Below, piece after piece: positions 1,988-15,261 of a stretch of DNA of 31,317 nt. Position 1 is the first letter of the stretch. Each line of letters opens with the position of its first letter. The notes beneath the pieces were generated by a model, which ran no database searches, was not told the origin of the DNA, and was given only the letters and a program-made list of their open reading frames with translations. A program made the translations under genes and the position numbers. This stretch comes from a virus, in the IMG/VR virus record IMGVR_UViG_3300045988_067427, positions 1-31,317 of that record, one strand, 5' to 3'.

Positions 1988-2695
1988 ATGAAAGACTACT
2001 TGAAAAAGAAACCATTGTATGACTACAGGTCATACGGTGGGTGGGGTATACAGCGGCCTGAACATGGTACCTTAGGTCGCTTCGACCCGGCCATGACTAA
2101 GCTACTACCCGACGGCCGCACGTTCGAACTCAAGATGCAGTTCGACAGGCCGGCCTACCTCATGTACATCGAGGCAGGGGCCACACACGAGAAGGCGCTG
2201 CACAACTCGCTGAGGTGTGGTTCGTGGGCAAGCCTGTACAACGTCAAGGGTGAGGGCTACTGGTCTATGTGGGTCAAGAACCCACCCTCCTGGACGACTG
2301 AGATGGTAGCTATGCTGTGGCCCGAGGAAGACTCTAGGTGGCCTGAGGGCGAGATCAACTTTATGGAGACTCAGTCTGACAAGACCAAGACTCAGCTGAA
2401 TCTCCACTGGCCCTCGCCTAAAGACCGCTCTCCACAGCACTGGCCTGTGACGATCGACCTCGATACACGACAGTGGCACAAGTACGGGGTGCGTATCTAC
2501 CCCGACTGTATACGGTGGTTTGTAGACGACAAGATGGTGAGACACCTCGACACAGAGTTCTCACCCTACAACACCAAGCTGCACTTCGCTGTGCAGTGCG
2601 GTGTGAATCAGAACTTCGGGGTGATGTGGCACAAGGACATCGCCTGGGAAGAGAACATGTACATCATCCCTGAGAGAGCCCCAGGGATACTGTAG
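1988..2695 (+). CDS. GH16 / concanavalin-like glucanase-fold protein
   Basis: Pattern match to GH16 enzymes: GYWSMWV, WPEGEINFME (the E-x-D-x-x-E catalytic position, here E-I-N-F-M-E), WHKYGVRIYPDCIRWFVDDK and LHFAVQCGVN. No signal peptide seen. Lies between the endolysin and the holin. Confidence 0.7.
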   Translation: MKDYLKKKPLYDYRSYGGWGIQRPEHGTLGRFDPAMTKLLPDGRTFELKMQFDRPAYLMYIEAGATHEKALHNSLRCGSWASLYNVKGEGYWSMWVKNPPSWTTEMVAMLWPEEDSRWPEGEINFMETQSDKTKTQLNLHWPSPKDRSPQHWPVTIDLDTRQWHKYGVRIYPDCIRWFVDDKMVRHLDTEFSPYNTKLHFAVQCGVNQNFGVMWHKDIAWEENMYIIPERAPGIL

Positions 2696-2706
2696 TTAGG
2701 AGACAC

Positions 2707-3012
2707 ATGGATATTACTACGCTCGCCACTGTACCGGCTATGCTCGCTATCGTCGAGCTTCTGAAGCGCCTCGGCCTTCCGGCTAAGGCAGCTATGCCGG
2801 TTACTGTGGTACTGTCGGTCGCTCTGGGCCTGGCTCAGACTTTCCTTGGAGGTGATCCTGTCTACCAGGCTGCCGCTAAGTACCTGCTGATGGGTCTCGG
2901 TGCGTGTGGCCTCTACGATGCAGCTAAGATCGCATCCCCAACCGTGGAGCAGAAGAACGAGTTGAACACCACTGTCCCTCGTCGTGCTGAGGCTCCTGAG
3001 GTGACTGCCTGA
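2707..3012 (+). CDS. Holin-like membrane protein
   Basis: AGGAGA RBS. 101 aa with hydrophobic helices (TVPAMLAIVELL, MPVTVVLSVALGLAQTFL, YLLMGLGACGLY) and a charged C-terminal tail. Last gene before the terminator, adjacent to the lysins. Confidence 0.65.
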   Translation: MDITTLATVPAMLAIVELLKRLGLPAKAAMPVTVVLSVALGLAQTFLGGDPVYQAAAKYLLMGLGACGLYDAAKIASPTVEQKNELNTTVPRRAEAPEVTA

Positions 3013-8470: not shown

Positions 8471-10195
8471 CTACCTTACATCAATCTCTGGTCCCCAGCA
8501 AGTGCCTACCTCAACATCAGCTACCAGAGGGCAGTCAAAGTGGGGCAGGGGCCCCTCCATGGTCTCCTTGATCATGCTTGCTGTGGTCTCGGCTAGGTCA
8601 TCAGGCACCAGCACGAGCACAGCGTCGTGGATCAGGCCCAGTATGTGGCTGTCACCCTCCAGGCTAGACCACACACGTGTGGCAGCTCTCAGCATGATGT
8701 CGCTACCTGTGCCCTGCACCTGACTATTGACAGCCTGGCGCTCAGCTGCCGCTACCTCGTATTCGTCATCGCTGTATAGTCCTGGCAGGTGTCGCCTACG
8801 GCCGAACATAGTCGACGAGTACCCCAGCTGATGAGCCTTAGCTTTGGCCCTAGCGTGCCATGGGCGTAGCCCTGACCAGTGCTGGAAGAAGGACTCCCTG
8901 AAGGACTCAGCCTCCTCGAGCGTGATGTCAGTACCGTAGCTAACCTTAGCGAACTGGACGAACGACTTAGCGCTCATGCCGTACAGGAATCCGAAGTTGA
9001 CGATCTTAGCTTTCCTACGGTCAAAGCTATTGTCCGGATCCAGCCCGATAGCACGTGTGGTCTGTGAGTGGATGTCCCCGCCCTGTCTGTACAGCTCGAG
9101 CATATTCTTGTCACGCGAGACCACAGCTGCAACGCGTAGCTCCAGCTGGCTGTAGTCAGCCTCAATGATCTTGTACCCGTCAGGGGCAGCTACCAGGCCC
9201 CTTATGAAGGGGTCCTTCGGAACTTGCTGTAGGTTCACGCCAACACCGTCACATACTTTGCTCGAGGATAGACGCCCAGTCACAGTACCGTGGAGCTTAA
9301 ATGACGTGTATAAACGTCCCCTTTCGTCTATTTGTTCTTTATATGGGGTAATAAACCCGTCTATGTTCTTCTTTAGTCGTGACCTTTCTAATAGTGTTTT
9401 AGCAATAGGGTGATCCATATAAGCAAGAGCCTTCTTGGAAAGGCTAGGAGCACCATTAGGGAATGCTTTAGTAGGCTTTCCTACCTCCTTTTTGGGGATT
9501 CCCAAATAGTCGTACAGGAACCACCGCTGAAAGTTAGTAGTCCCCCATTTAACCTGCATACCTTCGGGTATTTCTGAAGGTATTTCTGACTGTAATTTGG
9601 CGTCTATCTTAGCCAATTCAGAGGTGTATCTACGCTCGGCTATCTCGAGCTTACCCCGGCTAATCGGAATACCGTAGTCTTCGGACTCGGCTAGCATGTT
9701 GATAGCCGGGACCACAACCTTCTTGAGGAGTTTCTTCTGATTGAGGGTGAGTTTACCCCTGTTAATCCGGTATAGCTCACGTGTGGCCAGGAGGTCCTTT
9801 TTCAGATATGTGGCCATAGCTTCAGGATCAGAGTCATCCCACACACCGTCATAAGACCAGTCCCCGCCCATAAAGTCAGCCATGAGAGACTTAAGGCCTA
9901 GAGGTCGATTCTCGTCCACCATATGAGCACCCAGCATAGTGTCTCCAGCTGCCTCGATATCGGCACCGAACCGCTTAGCGTACACTATGTCGAATTTGAT
10001 GTTGTGGCCCATAACCGGAGGGAGTTTTCCACACAGCTTGACAAGCCTAGCACGCCATGTCTCAGGGTGCTTAGAGGCCATGTGGAAAACACGTGGCTCA
10101 TCTTCAGGCTTATCACCAAGGATGCCCACCATAAGCACGGCGGCATCCTTGGCGCGGGGATTAAGCCCTGTGGTCTCGATGTCTAGAAATAACAT
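8471..10195 (-). CDS. Family A DNA polymerase with 3'-5' exonuclease domain
   Basis: Exonuclease motifs FLDIETTGL, HNIKFD and YLKKD. Polymerase motif A DYSQLELRV, motif B RRKAKIVNFGFLYGMS, motif C LIHDAV. No 5'-3' exonuclease domain. Confidence 0.95.
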   Translation of the reverse strand: MLFLDIETTGLNPRAKDAAVLMVGILGDKPEDEPRVFHMASKHPETWRARLVKLCGKLPPVMGHNIKFDIVYAKRFGADIEAAGDTMLGAHMVDENRPLGLKSLMADFMGGDWSYDGVWDDSDPEAMATYLKKDLLATRELYRINRGKLTLNQKKLLKKVVVPAINMLAESEDYGIPISRGKLEIAERRYTSELAKIDAKLQSEIPSEIPEGMQVKWGTTNFQRWFLYDYLGIPKKEVGKPTKAFPNGAPSLSKKALAYMDHPIAKTLLERSRLKKNIDGFITPYKEQIDERGRLYTSFKLHGTVTGRLSSSKVCDGVGVNLQQVPKDPFIRGLVAAPDGYKIIEADYSQLELRVAAVVSRDKNMLELYRQGGDIHSQTTRAIGLDPDNSFDRRKAKIVNFGFLYGMSAKSFVQFAKVSYGTDITLEEAESFRESFFQHWSGLRPWHARAKAKAHQLGYSSTMFGRRRHLPGLYSDDEYEVAAAERQAVNSQVQGTGSDIMLRAATRVWSSLEGDSHILGLIHDAVLVLVPDDLAETTASMIKETMEGPLPHFDCPLVADVEVGTCWGPEIDVR

Positions 10196-10698
10196 TTTGT
10201 CAACTCTTTGGCAAGCTTGTGAGCGGTGCGCACATCTGTGGTTGATTTGTACTCAATTGATTCTTCACCAATAGTGAAAGTCGTAGCTGTGCGGAACTTG
10301 TTCAACTTCCAGCTGGCCGTCCGTGCACACTCAGTAACCCACGAGCGGTACCCAATGCTCAGAACCAGGAATTCAGCCCAAGAGTACCCAGTCTCGGCGC
10401 CTGCCCACAACTGCTTACCCCAGTCCGAGAACAAGTCATCTAAGTTGAATGCAATCACGGCCAAGTTGAACCCCTTAGCCCGTGGTACGTTAGGCTTAGC
10501 CCCTGCTCGGATTTCAGAATTGATACCCACGTAATCGTGGATATCCCCGTCAACCCACGAGCGGGTCATGACACCGTGTGAGTTCTGTGGGTCCACAACC
10601 AGCTCGCTGGGGGCGTACCCCAGCCCTCGGGCGAAGACTTCAGGGGTAACCCCTGGGGTGGCTGCAATGACAAGTCGGTCAGACGGATTCACTAACAT
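10183..10698 (-). CDS. 171-aa hypothetical protein
   Basis: Good RBS (AGGAGAG 4 nt before ATG 10698). Overlaps the helicase stop by 20 nt and the polymerase start by 13 nt. No motif recognised. Confidence 0.75.
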   Translation of the reverse strand: MLVNPSDRLVIAATPGVTPEVFARGLGYAPSELVVDPQNSHGVMTRSWVDGDIHDYVGINSEIRAGAKPNVPRAKGFNLAVIAFNLDDLFSDWGKQLWAGAETGYSWAEFLVLSIGYRSWVTECARTASWKLNKFRTATTFTIGEESIEYKSTTDVRTAHKLAKELTKCYF

Positions 10699-12043
10699 AG
10701 GTCTCTCCTAACAGGAAGTCTCTGGTATTCAGCATGATCTCTTTACGGAACTCTGTGGCCTCAGCCAGGCTAGACCACAGGGAGTCCTCCACAGTGTCCT
10801 GAGTCACCAGGACGATGACCTTCGGATCATCTGCTAGAGCTACTCTATCAGACATCTGGCGGTAGGTCAAAGCTGAGGTAGGCACCCCGTACCACACCAG
10901 CACTTCGGCCTCGCGCATATCCACAGCAGTGGCAGCGACTTGAGGATTTACCACCAGAGTGCCAGCCTCAGAGGCCTTCCAGGCGTCCAGCACGGCAGTC
11001 TTATCCTTTACCTTACCGTCCAGCCTATACGTGGGGTCTAAGTGACCCTCCAGCACTGTGAGGGAGTCAAGTAGCTCGCTAGCTACCACTATACGACCAC
11101 TGTAGCTGTCGCGTATGCGCAGCAGGGCCTCGAGCTTGTGGGTGCTGTGCATGAGCTTCCCCTCACCTGTGGATAGCCCCTCAGCTAGCCTGCGGCACTT
11201 GGCAAACAGGGCCAGCACCGAGTCAGCTCCAGTTTCGCCTTGAGCCTCGAGGACGTCGAGCTCATCCCGCACCATAGACTGGTAGGTAGCATGACGGGAC
11301 TCGACCATGTATACGGGCACAACCTCCTCCTGCACAGCCTTAGTGCCCAGAGCGTCCTCACGGCTAATACTTATGGAGTGCGCCTTAATAAGTGCCTGGT
11401 ATTCCTCAGTATTCCTTGGACCTATATAGCGGGGGAATCCCCCGAAATTAGACCATTCACCGAAATACTCCCGGAATGACTTAGCTGAGGGGAAATCAGC
11501 TCGAATAGAGGGGTCAGAGAATACCAACTGTGGGTAAATCTCACCCACCATATTACGCTTACCCACAGGGGTGGCTGTCAAGCATACCCTGTATCTAGCA
11601 GATTTAGCCATACCCACAATACGCCTAGACCTCTTGCTGGCGGGCGTCTTGATTAGGTGAGATTCGTCCAGGACAATAGCTGATGCGTGGTATTCAGCCC
11701 CTTTGAAAAGTCCCTTAGGGTACCCTCGGGAGAATTTGTCATAGTTGATGAGCACTATCTTAGGCAGTGCGGAGGCCTCATATGCCCCATCGTAGACAAT
11801 GTCCGCCTCAGGACCCCAGTAATGCTGCTGGAGTTCCCTGACCCACACGTCAATAGCGATCTTAGGGCAGACCACAACGATGTACCTAACATCACGGTTG
11901 TGCATCAGCCACGACAACCAGTCGATGGTTGTCTTAGTCTTACCCGTACGTGTGTCCATAAGGAGCATACCGTGCTCTTTTTTAGCCAGCCACTTAACCG
12001 CGGCCAGCTGATAGTCTCGAGGTTTAGTGACTGGCTCAAACAT
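10679..12043 (-). CDS. SNF2/DExH-family helicase
   Basis: Motif I MDTRTGKTKT, motif II VLDESHLIK, motif III LTATP and a C-terminal helicase lobe with QMSDRV. Confidence 0.9.
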   Translation of the reverse strand: MFEPVTKPRDYQLAAVKWLAKKEHGMLLMDTRTGKTKTTIDWLSWLMHNRDVRYIVVVCPKIAIDVWVRELQQHYWGPEADIVYDGAYEASALPKIVLINYDKFSRGYPKGLFKGAEYHASAIVLDESHLIKTPASKRSRRIVGMAKSARYRVCLTATPVGKRNMVGEIYPQLVFSDPSIRADFPSAKSFREYFGEWSNFGGFPRYIGPRNTEEYQALIKAHSISISREDALGTKAVQEEVVPVYMVESRHATYQSMVRDELDVLEAQGETGADSVLALFAKCRRLAEGLSTGEGKLMHSTHKLEALLRIRDSYSGRIVVASELLDSLTVLEGHLDPTYRLDGKVKDKTAVLDAWKASEAGTLVVNPQVAATAVDMREAEVLVWYGVPTSALTYRQMSDRVALADDPKVIVLVTQDTVEDSLWSSLAEATEFRKEIMLNTRDFLLGETYVSESV

Positions 12044-12303
12044 TAGTTAATTGCTCCTTCAATCATCTTCTTGTACTGGAGTGTGGTCCCAGTACCCATC
12101 CTAGCAACCTCCACACCCTCGCGCAAGGCGATAACTGTAGGCACGGACATGATGTCAAATTTACGCCCTAGGTCAGGGTTGACCTCAACATCAACGTAAT
12201 CCCAACCAAGGTAAGGGAACTTTTGCATAGCCCTTTCAAAATTAGCCTTGGCTTGCGGGCACTGTGCACACCATGGGGCTCCAACAAAGAACAACTTCAA
12301 CAT
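12043..12303 (-). CDS. Thioredoxin-fold redox protein
   Basis: 86 aa with a WCAQCP CxxC motif and the SVPT cis-Pro element. Its ATG overlaps the stop of the upstream gene (TAATG), and its own stop overlaps the ATG of the downstream helicase gene. Confidence 0.8.
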   Translation of the reverse strand: MLKLFFVGAPWCAQCPQAKANFERAMQKFPYLGWDYVDVEVNPDLGRKFDIMSVPTVIALREGVEVARMGTGTTLQYKKMIEGAIN

Positions 12304-13130
12304 TAAACTACCACCACTTTCGCTGAGTAGATAGGCGCCTTATAGTCGACCGCCTTGAACCCTTTACCTTTAAATTCTAGCACACCTTGTTTAGCCGGTA
12401 TGAACTCAATCTCCTTCTCTACCCTAGCGGGCATCAGCATCCTATGCCAAACATCGAGATTCTGGCAATACACATGTGCATTAGCAGTAGTGAACCTCAG
12501 CTGACCCGGCACGACCTCATGCCCGTGATAATTCAGGGTATTAGTCATCAGGTGGATAAGCATCCATCCCTCAAGCGTGTCGTAAGGTAGACCGCACACT
12601 ACATCAGTAGACCGGGCGAATATGTCGAGGTTGACCCTGCCCCCTACCACATTGAACACCCACACCACCGGGCAAGGTGGAATACGCATAGACCCTACCT
12701 CATACCCCTGCCAGGCAGTCCACACAGCGCGTTTGGTTGTGGGGTTGGCTACAAGCCTGTCCACAACGTCCTGTACAGCGTCATATAGCCCACCAGGGCC
12801 CCCGTAGCGCCACTGGACTCCATACATAGGCCCCAGCGTGTCTGTGGCCCACGGGGACCACATGCGCTCCACATCTGGGGTGATTCTAGCACACCTGTCC
12901 TGCTGTGTGGCCCCTGACCCGCTCAGCATCCAGTGCAGCTCACGCTGAGCCATGTCCACAGACACTCTACGAGTCTGGGATAGGGGTGCATGGGTGTAGA
13001 CCACACTCCATGACCCGTAGCACCAGTAGGGGTGCTCCTGCCCTTTTGTTACTAGCTCAGCAACCTGTCTAGACAGGTTGTATACGTTATGATCATACTC
13101 ACACAGCACGTCGGTAAGCCTCCGATACAC
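12303..13130 (-). CDS. Thymidylate-synthase-family enzyme with dCMP-type active site (candidate dCMP methylase/hydroxymethylase)
   Basis: ThyA motifs ELHWMLSG, GPMYGVQWR, PPCP (catalytic Cys), ARSTDVVCGLPYD and ANAHVY. The spacing is identical to E. coli QRSCDVFLGLPFN, which puts Asp where ThyA has Asn177. Confidence 0.85.
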   Translation of the reverse strand: MYRRLTDVLCEYDHNVYNLSRQVAELVTKGQEHPYWCYGSWSVVYTHAPLSQTRRVSVDMAQRELHWMLSGSGATQQDRCARITPDVERMWSPWATDTLGPMYGVQWRYGGPGGLYDAVQDVVDRLVANPTTKRAVWTAWQGYEVGSMRIPPCPVVWVFNVVGGRVNLDIFARSTDVVCGLPYDTLEGWMLIHLMTNTLNYHGHEVVPGQLRFTTANAHVYCQNLDVWHRMLMPARVEKEIEFIPAKQGVLEFKGKGFKAVDYKAPIYSAKVVVV

Positions 13131-13857
13131 ACTTGACGATTATGTAACCCGGTTCCTTAACCCATGAGCTACCGTAATTAGCCCAGTGCGTAAAGTCTTT
13201 AACTGCCTTATTGAAATTCTTAGCTAGAGTGTAATTAGTCACCCCATAAGATACATCTGGGCTTACATTATAGCCCATATTAAGGTACTTATGAAAGGCC
13301 TCAAGAATAAACATACAGGCCTTTTTAGTAAGGTCCCTAAACCTTATATCACCCCAGTTAAGGGTCTCCATGCATTGGGGATACCAGTCACCGAAATTGA
13401 GGTCATTAGACCACCGAGCGCCGTCATCTTTTAGAGACCTAGTTACGACCACACCTGCATTCTTCAGCACGGTTATACCCTGTTTGTGGTCTCGCCAATT
13501 AGGCTTTTTCAAGGCTGGGTCAAGCCACGGCCTGTCGTATTCCAGGTACCCTCTAAACCATGACAGCAACAGTGCCCTAGCACAGTTCGCACACGGCTCA
13601 TATGTCATGGCTATGTGGCCCTCACGCAGCTCGTAAGGAAGCCTCATAAGCTCTAGTGAGGCCCACACCTCCGCATGAATGTACTCAAGACACTGGCCAT
13701 TAGGTGCGATATCGTGCAGTTTAGGGCCGAGCTCCACGTTATGAGTGGCTATGGCTCTCCCTGTACGTGTGTTTTCGAAATAACACCCAACCTTGACATC
13801 CGGGTGGGACGACTGACTGGCTACCTCGTATGCTTTTTCAATGTTACTCAGTATCAT
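13099..13857 (-). CDS. dCMP/cytidine deaminase-family zinc enzyme with ~110-aa C-terminal extension
   Basis: Motifs VKVGCYF...YIHAEVWA...YEPCANCARALL (H-A-E and P-C-x-x-C). Residues ~140-252 have no recognisable motif. Confidence 0.85.
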   Translation of the reverse strand: MILSNIEKAYEVASQSSHPDVKVGCYFENTRTGRAIATHNVELGPKLHDIAPNGQCLEYIHAEVWASLELMRLPYELREGHIAMTYEPCANCARALLLSWFRGYLEYDRPWLDPALKKPNWRDHKQGITVLKNAGVVVTRSLKDDGARWSNDLNFGDWYPQCMETLNWGDIRFRDLTKKACMFILEAFHKYLNMGYNVSPDVSYGVTNYTLAKNFNKAVKDFTHWANYGSSWVKEPGYIIVKCVSEAYRRAV

Positions 13858-14137
13858 AGGTCCTCACAATAACACGATCGAACTGTGGAAAAGTCTTCAG
13901 AATAGCTTCACAAGTGATGCAAACGTGGTTAATTATGTACGCAATGCCCGGGCGTGACCCCCCAACCTCATTTAGCAGCCTCATTACTGGGTGGATGTAG
14001 GCCCCTCCGGGCTTAGGGTAATACTTACCCGGCACCCACCAGATACCGTCTGGGCTTGAGAAAACCACAGATGACATACATCCTCGCTCGGGCTTGATGC
14101 TCTGAACCATGCGGGGAATATCCCCGAATTCATACAT
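13844..14137 (-). CDS. 97-aa deaminase-fold-like protein lacking the catalytic Glu (HPV ... CITC)
   Basis: The sequence SSVVFSSPDGIWWVPG...AYIHPVMRLL...IAYIINHVCITCEAILKT...RVIV follows the order of the CDA-fold beta-alpha elements. His and Cys-x-x-Cys are retained, but Val sits where the proton-shuttle Glu should be. Overlaps the start of the catalytic deaminase gene by 14 nt. Confidence 0.5.
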   Translation of the reverse strand: MYEFGDIPRMVQSIKPERGCMSSVVFSSPDGIWWVPGKYYPKPGGAYIHPVMRLLNEVGGSRPGIAYIINHVCITCEAILKTFPQFDRVIVRTYDTE

Positions 14138-14997: not shown

Positions 14998-15261
14998 TCA
15001 GCGTTGCCTGAAGCTCTCAGTGGTATCGTAGCCTGTCCCCCGTATGCCAGCTCTGGCCTGAGTCATGCCCTTAGCCTCCATCTCAGTTGGGGTGAGGCAC
15101 CTACGGCGATCAGGGCCCTCAGTCACCCCGTGGCGGCCTACGCGGTGCATGTCACCCGCCCTGGTACCCCCGAAAGTCTCATGGCACACGGGGCAGTGCT
15201 CGTAGCTGCGTTTGGTGATGTTCTTCTTGCAAGTTCTGCATGCCCAAGTCATGGCACCCAC
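14998..15261 (-). CDS. FDxHR-type putative zinc-binding protein
   Basis: The pattern CRTC...HCPVCHETF...GDMHR...RRC matches the CxxC/HCxxCH/(F)DxHR layout of a family common in actinobacterial phages. The track start is GTG 15261; ATG 15252 (MTWACRTC) is an alternative. Confidence 0.75.
   Translation of the reverse strand: MGAMTWACRTCKKNITKRSYEHCPVCHETFGGTRAGDMHRVGRHGVTEGPDRRRCLTPTEMEAKGMTQARAGIRGTGYDTTESFRQR

Follow-up and report, generated by a model that had tools for sequence, protein, structure and literature searches.

A thymidylate synthase homologue with a predicted specificity for dCMP, and its neighboring deaminase, in an uncultured 31-kb phage

Here, we examine a gene of the thymidylate synthase (TS) superfamily carried by an uncultured phage, IMG/VR record IMGVR_UViG_3300045988_067427, whose 31,317 nucleotides were analyzed in full and are called the window below. 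The gene lies on the minus strand at 12303..13109 (within a frame open to a GTG at 13130) and adjoins a gene for a zinc deaminase of the dCMP-deaminase family (13099..13857, minus strand). The explanation that we favor, as probable rather than secure, is that the window TS is a C5-methyltransferase of deoxycytidine monophosphate (dCMP), making 5-methyl-dCMP, and that it is paired with a deaminase that feeds the thymidine nucleotides. In this scheme, an Asp at the position of Asn177 (residue positions are given in Escherichia coli numbering) would switch the TS-fold enzyme from deoxyuridine monophosphate (dUMP) to dCMP. Having kept the machinery of folate-dependent reductive methylation, the enzyme would then convert dCMP and 5,10-methylene-tetrahydrofolate to 5-methyl-dCMP and dihydrofolate (DHF). 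The adjacent co-transcribed deaminase would most likely turn some of the 5-methyl-dC nucleotides into thymidine nucleotides, so that the two enzymes together would supply both the 5-methyl-dC and the dT precursors, as has been proposed for Xanthomonas phage Xp12 and for the metagenomic mSCD-B5 contig.

If this is true, common uncultured small phages make 5-methyl-dCMP with fewer genes than in any version of the pathway seen so far. The predicted cytosine methylation stands, moreover, beside a strong avoidance of certain restriction sites, and such a combination tests whether modules of this kind always give full base replacement.

Fold, specificity residues and predicted product of the window TS

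The window protein belongs to the thymidylate synthase superfamily (PF00303 fold). It matches the Pfam family PF00303 (Thymidylat_synt) with E=7.6e-32 (110.9 bits, where the cutoff is 24.3), and it also matches PHROG 160 (“thymidylate synthase”) with E=4.8e-40. A comparison of structure models, which the original prediction from the sequence had proposed as a check, returned the same fold: an AlphaFold2 (AF2) model built on a 38-sequence alignment (mean predicted local distance difference test score, pLDDT, 89.8) superposes over its full length on the ThyA proteins of E. coli and Mycobacterium tuberculosis, the top Foldseek matches, with a template modeling (TM) score of ~0.8. The ThyA family motifs that had been reported in the open reading frame (ORF) 12303..13130 are indeed present, as RELHWMLSG, GPMYGVQWR, IPPCP, ARSTDVVCGLPYD and TANAHVY. 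When aligned by HMMER with solved E. coli TS chains, ARSTDVVCGLPYD lies without gaps opposite QRSCDVFLGLPFN, and IPPCP lies opposite LAPCH; a MAFFT alignment with E. coli ThyA, T4 gp42, Xp12 TS and 150 family representatives agrees with this residue mapping. The substitution at the center of the original prediction, Asp for Asn177, is thus gapless in both alignments.

Much of the active site is retained, namely E58, W80, W83, Y94, the catalytic C146, R166, S167, D169, G173, H207 and Y209. The differences from ThyA comprise K126/R127 for R126/R127, R142/I143 for A142/L143, Pro for H147, Ala for Q165, Thr for C168, Asp for N177 and Asn for D205. The N-terminal region is shorter than in E. coli ThyA and the Arg21 loop is without a basic residue, the phosphate-loop Arg being lost; at the opposite end there is a full 15-residue C-terminal tail that ends in KVVVV and aligns to E. 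coli KAPVAI. The earlier statements that His147 is replaced by Pro, that GGDTHLY has become TANAHVY and that the phosphate loop is not recognizable were therefore correct. Within the clade of close relatives of the window, the catalytic Cys146 (in its P-C motif), E58, Y94, R166, S167, D169, H207 and Y209 are invariant, and Asp177 is found in all of the other clade sequences examined (9/9; 76–91% identity where measured). Among the long Asp177 TS representatives, which were checked for domain fusions, an HNH insertion was the only find.

In ThyA it is Asn177, together with Gln165 and His147, that reads O4 and N3 of the uracil. The window TS has Asp177, Ala165 and Pro147 instead of this residue set of a bona fide ThyA. 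With this Asn changed to Asp (N177D or N229D), TS becomes a dCMP methylase (Liu & Santi 1992; Hardy & Nalivaika 1992; both as cited in PMC8670742 and PMC13326640), and T4 gp42, the dCMP hydroxymethylase, naturally has an Asp in the homologous segment, as had been pointed out, where it reads MRSNDVVFGFRND. When TS genes of cytosine-modified and unmodified metavirome contigs were compared, positions 177 and 147 were the top two discriminators, and Asp177 marks the TS set of the modified contigs (Yang et al. 2021, PMC8670742). Our table of 146 family representatives gives a similar picture: His147 occurs in 107 of the 110 proteins with Asn177, and Pro147 in 19/36 of the Asp177 proteins versus 1/110 of the Asn177 proteins. 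Within the clade, position 147 is Pro or Thr. The window TS also scores below all of the NCBIfam ThyA equivalog cutoffs (TIGR03284, 86.2 bits vs 108.35; NF002497, 101.1 vs 327), as do Xp12 TS and T4 gp42. From these sequence features, a specificity of the window TS for dCMP is well supported. The earlier suggestion that the enzyme acts on dCMP accordingly gains from Asp177, from the loss of His147, from the sub-cutoff ThyA scores and from the dCTPase/dUTPase-like neighbors, an arrangement shared with T4, of the TS gene in two more distant relatives, L005 and L007, that are described below.

The most conventional alternative is that of a divergent ordinary thymidylate synthase, converting dUMP to deoxythymidine monophosphate (dTMP) after a dCMP deaminase, like the cd and td products of T4, with Asp177 either tolerated or compensated. 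The adjacency of a deaminase and a TS is also that of the classical dTMP-supply pair, the reductive methylation apparatus is wholly intact, the avoidance of restriction sites suits unmodified DNA, and Asn177 is found on a similar scaffold in P0009, which is the closest outgroup. Nonetheless, we consider this alternative quite improbable. Asn177 specifies dUMP and N177D switches the enzyme to dCMP (as cited in PMC8670742, PMC13326640); Asp177 is invariant in the clade, and His147 and Gln165 are missing alongside it, as they are in Xp12 TS and T4 gp42; and every ThyA equivalog model falls under its cutoff.

The nature of the group transferred can be judged from two published signatures. The ternary complex of the T4 dCMP hydroxymethylase (dCH) defined the first of these as Asp/Glu at the third residue ahead of the catalytic Cys (Cys-3), where it activates water, Ser/Thr at the second residue ahead of Tyr96 (Tyr-2), and the absence of the C-terminal tail; the D145N mutation alone abolishes the formation of 5-hydroxymethyl-dCMP (PMC6400193). 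The second is that of the 5-hydroxy-dCMP synthases, such as RB69 gp48 and DLP3 gp80, which have N177D, L143E and the diagnostic D169N (Lee et al. 2026, PMC13326640). In the window TS, Cys-3 (position 143) is Ile, and Ile or Leu in the relatives, rather than Asp/Glu; Pro (GPMYG) stands in place of Ser/Thr at the second residue ahead of Tyr94; and the tail is there, so that the hydroxymethylase signature fails in three of its three elements. The 5-hydroxy-dCMP signature is absent as well, given Asp169 and Ile143. What the window TS combines with Asp177 is the apparatus for hydride transfer: W80, W83, D169, the C-terminal tail and a nonacidic residue 143. To judge from the BLASTP values (E=1e-25 with E. 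coli ThyA, 2e-17 with Xp12 TS and 0.007 with gp42), its scaffold is far nearer to the methyl-forming TS than to T4 gp42. Because both the hydroxymethylase and the 5-hydroxy-dCMP signatures fail, methyl is the predicted product.

A dCMP hydroxymethylase of the T4 gp42 type, or a flavin-dependent 5-hydroxy-dCMP synthase of the RB69 gp48 type, with the base then hypermodified or deaminated to 5-hydroxymethyl-dU, is consequently the least probable of the readings that we weighed. Such enzymes share Asp177 with the window TS (PMC13326640), Thr147 is found in some clade members as in T4 gp42, and there is no gene for dihydrofolate reductase (DHFR), which would suit hydroxymethylases since these make no DHF (PMC6400193). 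Against them stand, besides the Ile/Leu at Cys-3 (where even D145N kills T4 dCH; PMC6400193) and the Pro at Tyr-2, the retention of W83 and of a TS-type C-terminal tail, an Asp169 that is not Asn (PMC13326640), a BLASTP match to gp42 of only E=0.007, and the 31-kb genome itself, in which no glycosyl-, carbamoyl- or other transferase gene was found. Of the two products originally envisaged, 5-methyl-dCMP thus remains as the favored one, and 5-hydroxymethyl-dCMP does not. The accompanying idea of a modified uracil or thymine, formed by the deaminase, is likewise disfavored, since the deamination of a 5-methyl-dC nucleotide yields an ordinary thymidine nucleotide.

The deaminase, the early operon and the phage clade

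The deaminase (252 amino acids [aa]; PF00383, E=6.7e-9) has its HAE and PCxxC motifs intact. Its dCMP-deaminase-family domain extends over about residues 1–140; a profile search matched it to the dCMP deaminase of Streptococcus mutans, and the top Foldseek matches were T4 Cd, the S. mutans and human dCMP deaminases, cyanophage S-TIM5 and PBCV-1 bi-DCD. The remaining ~110 aa (residues ~140–252, 13099..13440) form a conserved C-terminal extension, predicted to be all-helical and with many invariant residues, which matched nothing in Pfam, among PDB sequences or by Foldseek. The AF2 model of this domain is of low confidence (pLDDT 50–75), and Foldseek matched the deaminase domain only. In L005 the homologous deaminase (155 aa) is without the extension; a 139-aa ORF lies there between the deaminase and TS genes, and the possibility that this ORF corresponds to the extension was ruled out, as the two have no homology. 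Searches with the deaminase retrieved at least 66 clusters (90% identity clustering) at 70–94% identity, nearly all of them 251 aa in length and many from contigs of ~31 kb, and a tblastn search against cultured phages gave no match. We regard the protein, by analogy, as a very divergent candidate of the 5-methylcytosine (5mC)-selective deaminase class. That class is under development for direct methylation sequencing, for which the window deaminase is a new candidate.

The position of the deaminase beside the TS is conserved in the three close relatives of the window (L004, L010 and L011), but the junction of the two genes requires a correction. The minus-strand ORF 12303..13130 encodes 275 aa from a GTG. 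A second in-frame GTG occurs at 13109, with a Shine-Dalgarno sequence, GGAGG (13119..13123, minus strand), 9 nt upstream, whereas the first GTG (13130) has no such site; moreover, the TS of all database relatives is called at 268 aa, with a start at the position of the second GTG. Because of the GGAGG at 9-nt spacing and the uniform length in the relatives, the true start is most likely GTG 13109, which gives a gene of 12303..13109 and a protein of 268 aa. The TS gene therefore shares 11 nt with the deaminase gene, as it does in the relatives, and not the 32 nt that had been given. At the other end of the gene, the TS stop and the start of the thioredoxin gene share a one-base overlap in TAATG (12303..12305). 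This coupling, also noted originally, is real, but the thioredoxin stop and the start of the SNF2 helicase gene likewise overlap by one base in TAATG (12043..12045), and such overlaps are packed throughout the early operon. The tight coupling belongs to the operon as a whole, and for this reason it is weak evidence for a specific partnership of TS and thioredoxin.

The genes around the pair are all on the minus strand. Downstream of the TS gene lie a small thioredoxin of 86 aa with the motif WCAQC (12043..12303; PF00085, E=7.3e-8; TIGR01068) and an SNF2-type helicase (10679..12043; PF00176, phrog_62), followed by a 171-aa ORF and a family A DNA polymerase, PolA (8471..10195; phrog_17, E=2.8e-121), for which 5-methyl-dCTP would have to be a substrate if the modified base enters the DNA. 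Upstream, a conserved 97-aa ORF (13844..14137, from the ORF list) shares 14 nt with the start of the deaminase gene; it gave no Pfam, PHROGs or PDB match and shows no similarity to the deaminase. This ORF has Cys/His-rich segments (…IHPVM…, …VCITCE…). The order of 97-aa ORF, deaminase, TS, thioredoxin, SNF2 helicase, 171-aa ORF and PolA is the same in L004, L010 and L011, where the 97-aa ORF is equally placed and the thioredoxin again lies downstream of the TS, and in all relatives BLASTP synteny puts the TS gene just upstream of the SNF2 helicase gene. The thioredoxin is absent in L005 and L007. A literature search found no thioredoxin or non-folate reductant in dCMP methylation of the Xp12 type. 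Lenient Pfam scans of the deaminase C-terminal domain, of the 97-, 90-, 132-, 171- and 126-aa ORFs and of the other unannotated ORFs (with E values of up to 1 allowed in the small early ORFs and of up to 0.01 elsewhere) produced nothing relevant to a hidden dCTPase, MazG, kinase or DHFR.

Three features lie apart from the pathway. An FDXHR zinc-binding protein of 87 aa (PF24071, E=1.9e-11; 14998..15261, minus strand) heads the early leftward operon. On the plus strand, the region directly upstream of the holin (2707..3012) encodes a protein of 235 aa (1988..2695) in which a domain of glycoside hydrolase family 16 was recognized (E=6e-8); such a domain is unusual in phage enzymes of lysis or of the tail tip. 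No tRNA genes were found in the window.

L004, L010 and L011 are 81–85% identical to the window at the DNA level. Since the contigs of the relatives measure 30.1–31.9 kb, the window probably represents an entire phage genome, and the 66 deaminase clusters, many of them from ~31-kb contigs, place it in a common, uncultured phage group. A megablast search of 8 kb around the TS gene against 50,697 phage records gave no match, and tblastn of the TS against cultured phages returned only matches at or below 32% identity. The nearest cultured relatives of PolA are Microbacterium and Gordonia phages; at ~38%, they are too far for a host to be deduced from them, and this attempt was given up. TS relatives at intermediate distance are rare, only three (41–46% identity) having been found among 1.8 billion representatives, and beyond P0009–P0011 the relatives are nearly equidistant (30–37% identity). 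Two of the intermediate proteins belong to syntenic phages of 32–34 kb, L005 and L007, whose PolA is 48–53% identical to that of the window. Ahead of the Asp177 TS of L005 stand the 155-aa deaminase, the 139-aa ORF and a gene of the DCD/dUTPase family. L007 has, after its Asp177 TS, a 134-aa ORF and a dUTPase_2 gene; the latter resembles the T4 gp56 dCTPase (E=3e-8; gp56 itself matches PF08761). Given these dUTPase/dCTPase-like genes, and the pyrophosphohydrolase-type (PRA-PH) and DHFR genes that flank the pair in Xp12, the wider lineage by analogy shows the logic of T4 and Xp12, by which dCTP would be cleared and dCMP then modified.

Restriction-site avoidance and the extent of cytosine replacement

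A number of observations weigh against a dCMP methyltransferase that serves the replacement of cytosine. The first group of these concerns the two enzymes. Xp12 TS has Asn at position 143 instead of a hydrophobic residue, and the rule for this position is thus imperfect. The window TS is ~30% identical to Xp12 TS, no closer than it is to E. coli ThyA; because it is equally distant from the two, its function is read from the signature residues and not from membership of a clade. The nearest outgroup, P0009 (on L006, a 950-bp contig; 46% identity), pairs Asn177 with Pro147, from which the specificity residue 177 appears to toggle within the lineage. The match between the window and Xp12 deaminases (E=0.03, 22% identity) is not significant. 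A second point is the lack of partners. Genes for a dCTPase/MazG, a deoxynucleoside monophosphate (dNMP) kinase and DHFR are not recognizable in the window, at Pfam/PHROGs sensitivity and with all early ORFs included, in agreement with what the original prediction had noted.

The third group of adverse observations comes from the restriction sites. The PstI site, CTGCAG, is the most under-represented hexamer of the window (0 sites vs 9.7 expected from a maximal-order Markov model), and it is missing also from L004, L010 and L011 (0 vs 2.1, 5.3 and 5.0 expected, a sum of ~12.4, or ~22 with the window). It is not avoided in Xp12 (35 vs 31.6 expected) or in L007 (7 vs 8.6). GGGAGG/CCTCCC, with both orientations counted, is likewise absent from the window (0 vs 12.9 expected), while the relatives that are 81–85% identical have 7–9 copies per 10–20 kb. 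The loss of the latter sequence looks like a strain-specific avoidance of a non-palindromic (Type IIS/III-like) restriction site.

The purging of C-containing sites is what is expected of DNA that has been exposed to classical restriction. PstI leaves the DNA of Xp12, in which 5mC replaces C fully, uncut, and SfcI (CTRYAG) cuts it (PMC7653180 Table S3). The absence of CTGCAG therefore argues against DNA that is fully protected or fully substituted with 5mC, without being decisive, because SfcI does cut Xp12 DNA and an enzyme insensitive to 5mC could still select against CTGCAG. Since dCTPase and dNMP kinase genes are not recognizable, any 5mC in the virion DNA may be partial. Taken together, the purged sites and the absent dCTPase and kinase genes point to the possibility either that replacement by 5mC is partial or that the pair serves mainly as a route to thymidylate in which the usual order of steps is reversed.

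In this reversed order, the same two enzymes would take dCMP to 5-methyl-dCMP and then to dTMP, and virion DNA would be essentially canonical, with little or no 5mC. We hold this to be unlikely, yet several observations speak for it. The dCTPase and the dNMP kinase are not recognizable, and the published in vivo assays co-expressed a promiscuous phage dNMP kinase for the modified base in DNA (bioRxiv 10.1101/2024.12.05.627091; PMC13326640). The avoidance of CTGCAG in the clade and of GGGAGG in the window implies exposure to classical restriction, and the overall reaction is the one that the canonical pair of deaminase and ThyA performs. On the other side, the Asp177 TS and deaminase pairs of the metavirome lie overwhelmingly on contigs scored as cytosine-modified, and mSCD-B5 selectively deaminates 5-methyl-dCTP (5mdCTP) to dTTP with no action on 5-methyl-dCMP (5mdCMP), which implies a modified triphosphate pool (both from bioRxiv 10.1101/2024.12.05.627091). 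Some enzymes that act at CTGCAG-containing sites do cut 5mC DNA, as SfcI does on Xp12, and L005 and L007 carry dCTPase-like genes.

A more specific form of the reversed route, which we put forward tentatively and think doubtful, is that the widespread ~31-kb phage clade runs it in a minimal two-enzyme version, without dCTPase, dNMP kinase or DHFR and with little or partial 5mC, so that the genomes still purge restriction sites. The TS and deaminase pair would then be primarily a nucleotide-supply device that avoids dUMP and dUTP, and not an anti-restriction modification. The translationally coupled thioredoxin and the unique C-terminal domain of the deaminase could be partners in such a device, for instance by keeping the Cys-rich TS reduced, by supplying reducing equivalents or by providing the scaffold of a complex of TS and deaminase.

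The base composition of the window (GC content 53.4%; observed/expected ratio 0.68 for CpG and 1.14 for TpG/CpA) was considered separately. A reading of the CpG depletion as a footprint of 5mC deamination was rejected, as full replacement would affect every C and not CpG alone.

Comparison with known systems

The reading that we prefer, a dCMP C5-methyltransferase with a deaminase partner, has its closest precedents in Xp12 and in the modified contigs of the metavirome. Xp12 TS was shown experimentally to produce 5mdCMP, as did 5/7 of the TS that were tested; on modified contigs, 70% of the dCMP-deaminase-family genes are within 3 kb of a TS, and 85% of these deaminase-near TS are predicted to make the 5-methyl or 5-hydroxymethyl derivative of dC, 5mdC or 5hmdC (bioRxiv 10.1101/2024.12.05.627091). 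The same study proposed that in such phages 5mC takes the place of C and that the dT nucleotides come from deamination of a share of the 5-methyl-dC pool, a supply to which older labeling data had already pointed in Xp12.

In Xp12 (MT664984: TS 45326-46195, deaminase 44850-45326), as in the window, a PF00383 deaminase adjoins the TS on the same strand, and the two TS have in common the fold, Asp177, Pro147 (PCP), a residue other than Gln at 165 and the C-terminal tail. The differences are considerable. The two proteins are 30% identical over 136 aa (E=2e-17), and the Xp12-like TS set found by tblastn is 40–83% identical to Xp12, so that the window TS is outside the Xp12/PaMx-type clade. The gene order is reversed, being deaminase-TS in the window and TS-deaminase in Xp12. 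The Xp12 pair is flanked by a PRA-PH (MazG-like) NTP pyrophosphatase and DHFR, whereas the window has neither of these and has a thioredoxin. Xp12 TS keeps Arg21 and Arg126, where the window TS is without Arg21 and has Lys126; the window deaminase, unlike that of Xp12, has the additional ~110-aa C-terminal domain; and CTGCAG is avoided in the window clade and not in Xp12.

The MetaGPA and mSCD-B5 contigs, likened here by their description, resemble the window in being from uncultured phages in which a PF00303 Asp177 gene lies no farther than 3 kb from a PF00383 gene and which have a DNA polymerase of family A, and the MetaGPA Asp177 TS, like the window TS, differ from ThyA at positions 177 and 147. 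In contrast to those systems, the window has no PRA-PH or MafB19 domain partner. T4 gp42 shares with the window TS the Asp at 177 (in RSxDVVxG), the loss of His147 and Gln165 and the lack of Arg at the Arg21 position. It is only 20% identical (E=0.007), and has Asp145 at Cys-3, Ser94 at Tyr-2, Val in place of W83 and no tail, where the corresponding features of the window TS are Ile, Pro, Trp and a complete tail.

E. coli ThyA (b2827) is the best-matching scaffold (30% identity, E=1e-25, TM ~0.8) and has in common with the window TS the catalytic Cys, E58, Y94, R166, S167, D169, H207, Y209, the folate-contact Trp and the C-terminal tail; the window TS departs from it by N177D, H147P, Q165A, D205N, R126K, the lost Arg21 loop, the shortened N-terminus and its scores below the equivalog cutoffs. 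The window system is thus a divergent new example of the Asp177 TS and deaminase modules known from Xp12 and MetaGPA (2021–2024), and not a new kind. What is unusual in it is the minimal gene set, the thioredoxin in the place of DHFR, the loss of Arg21 together with R126K, and the extra domain of the deaminase.

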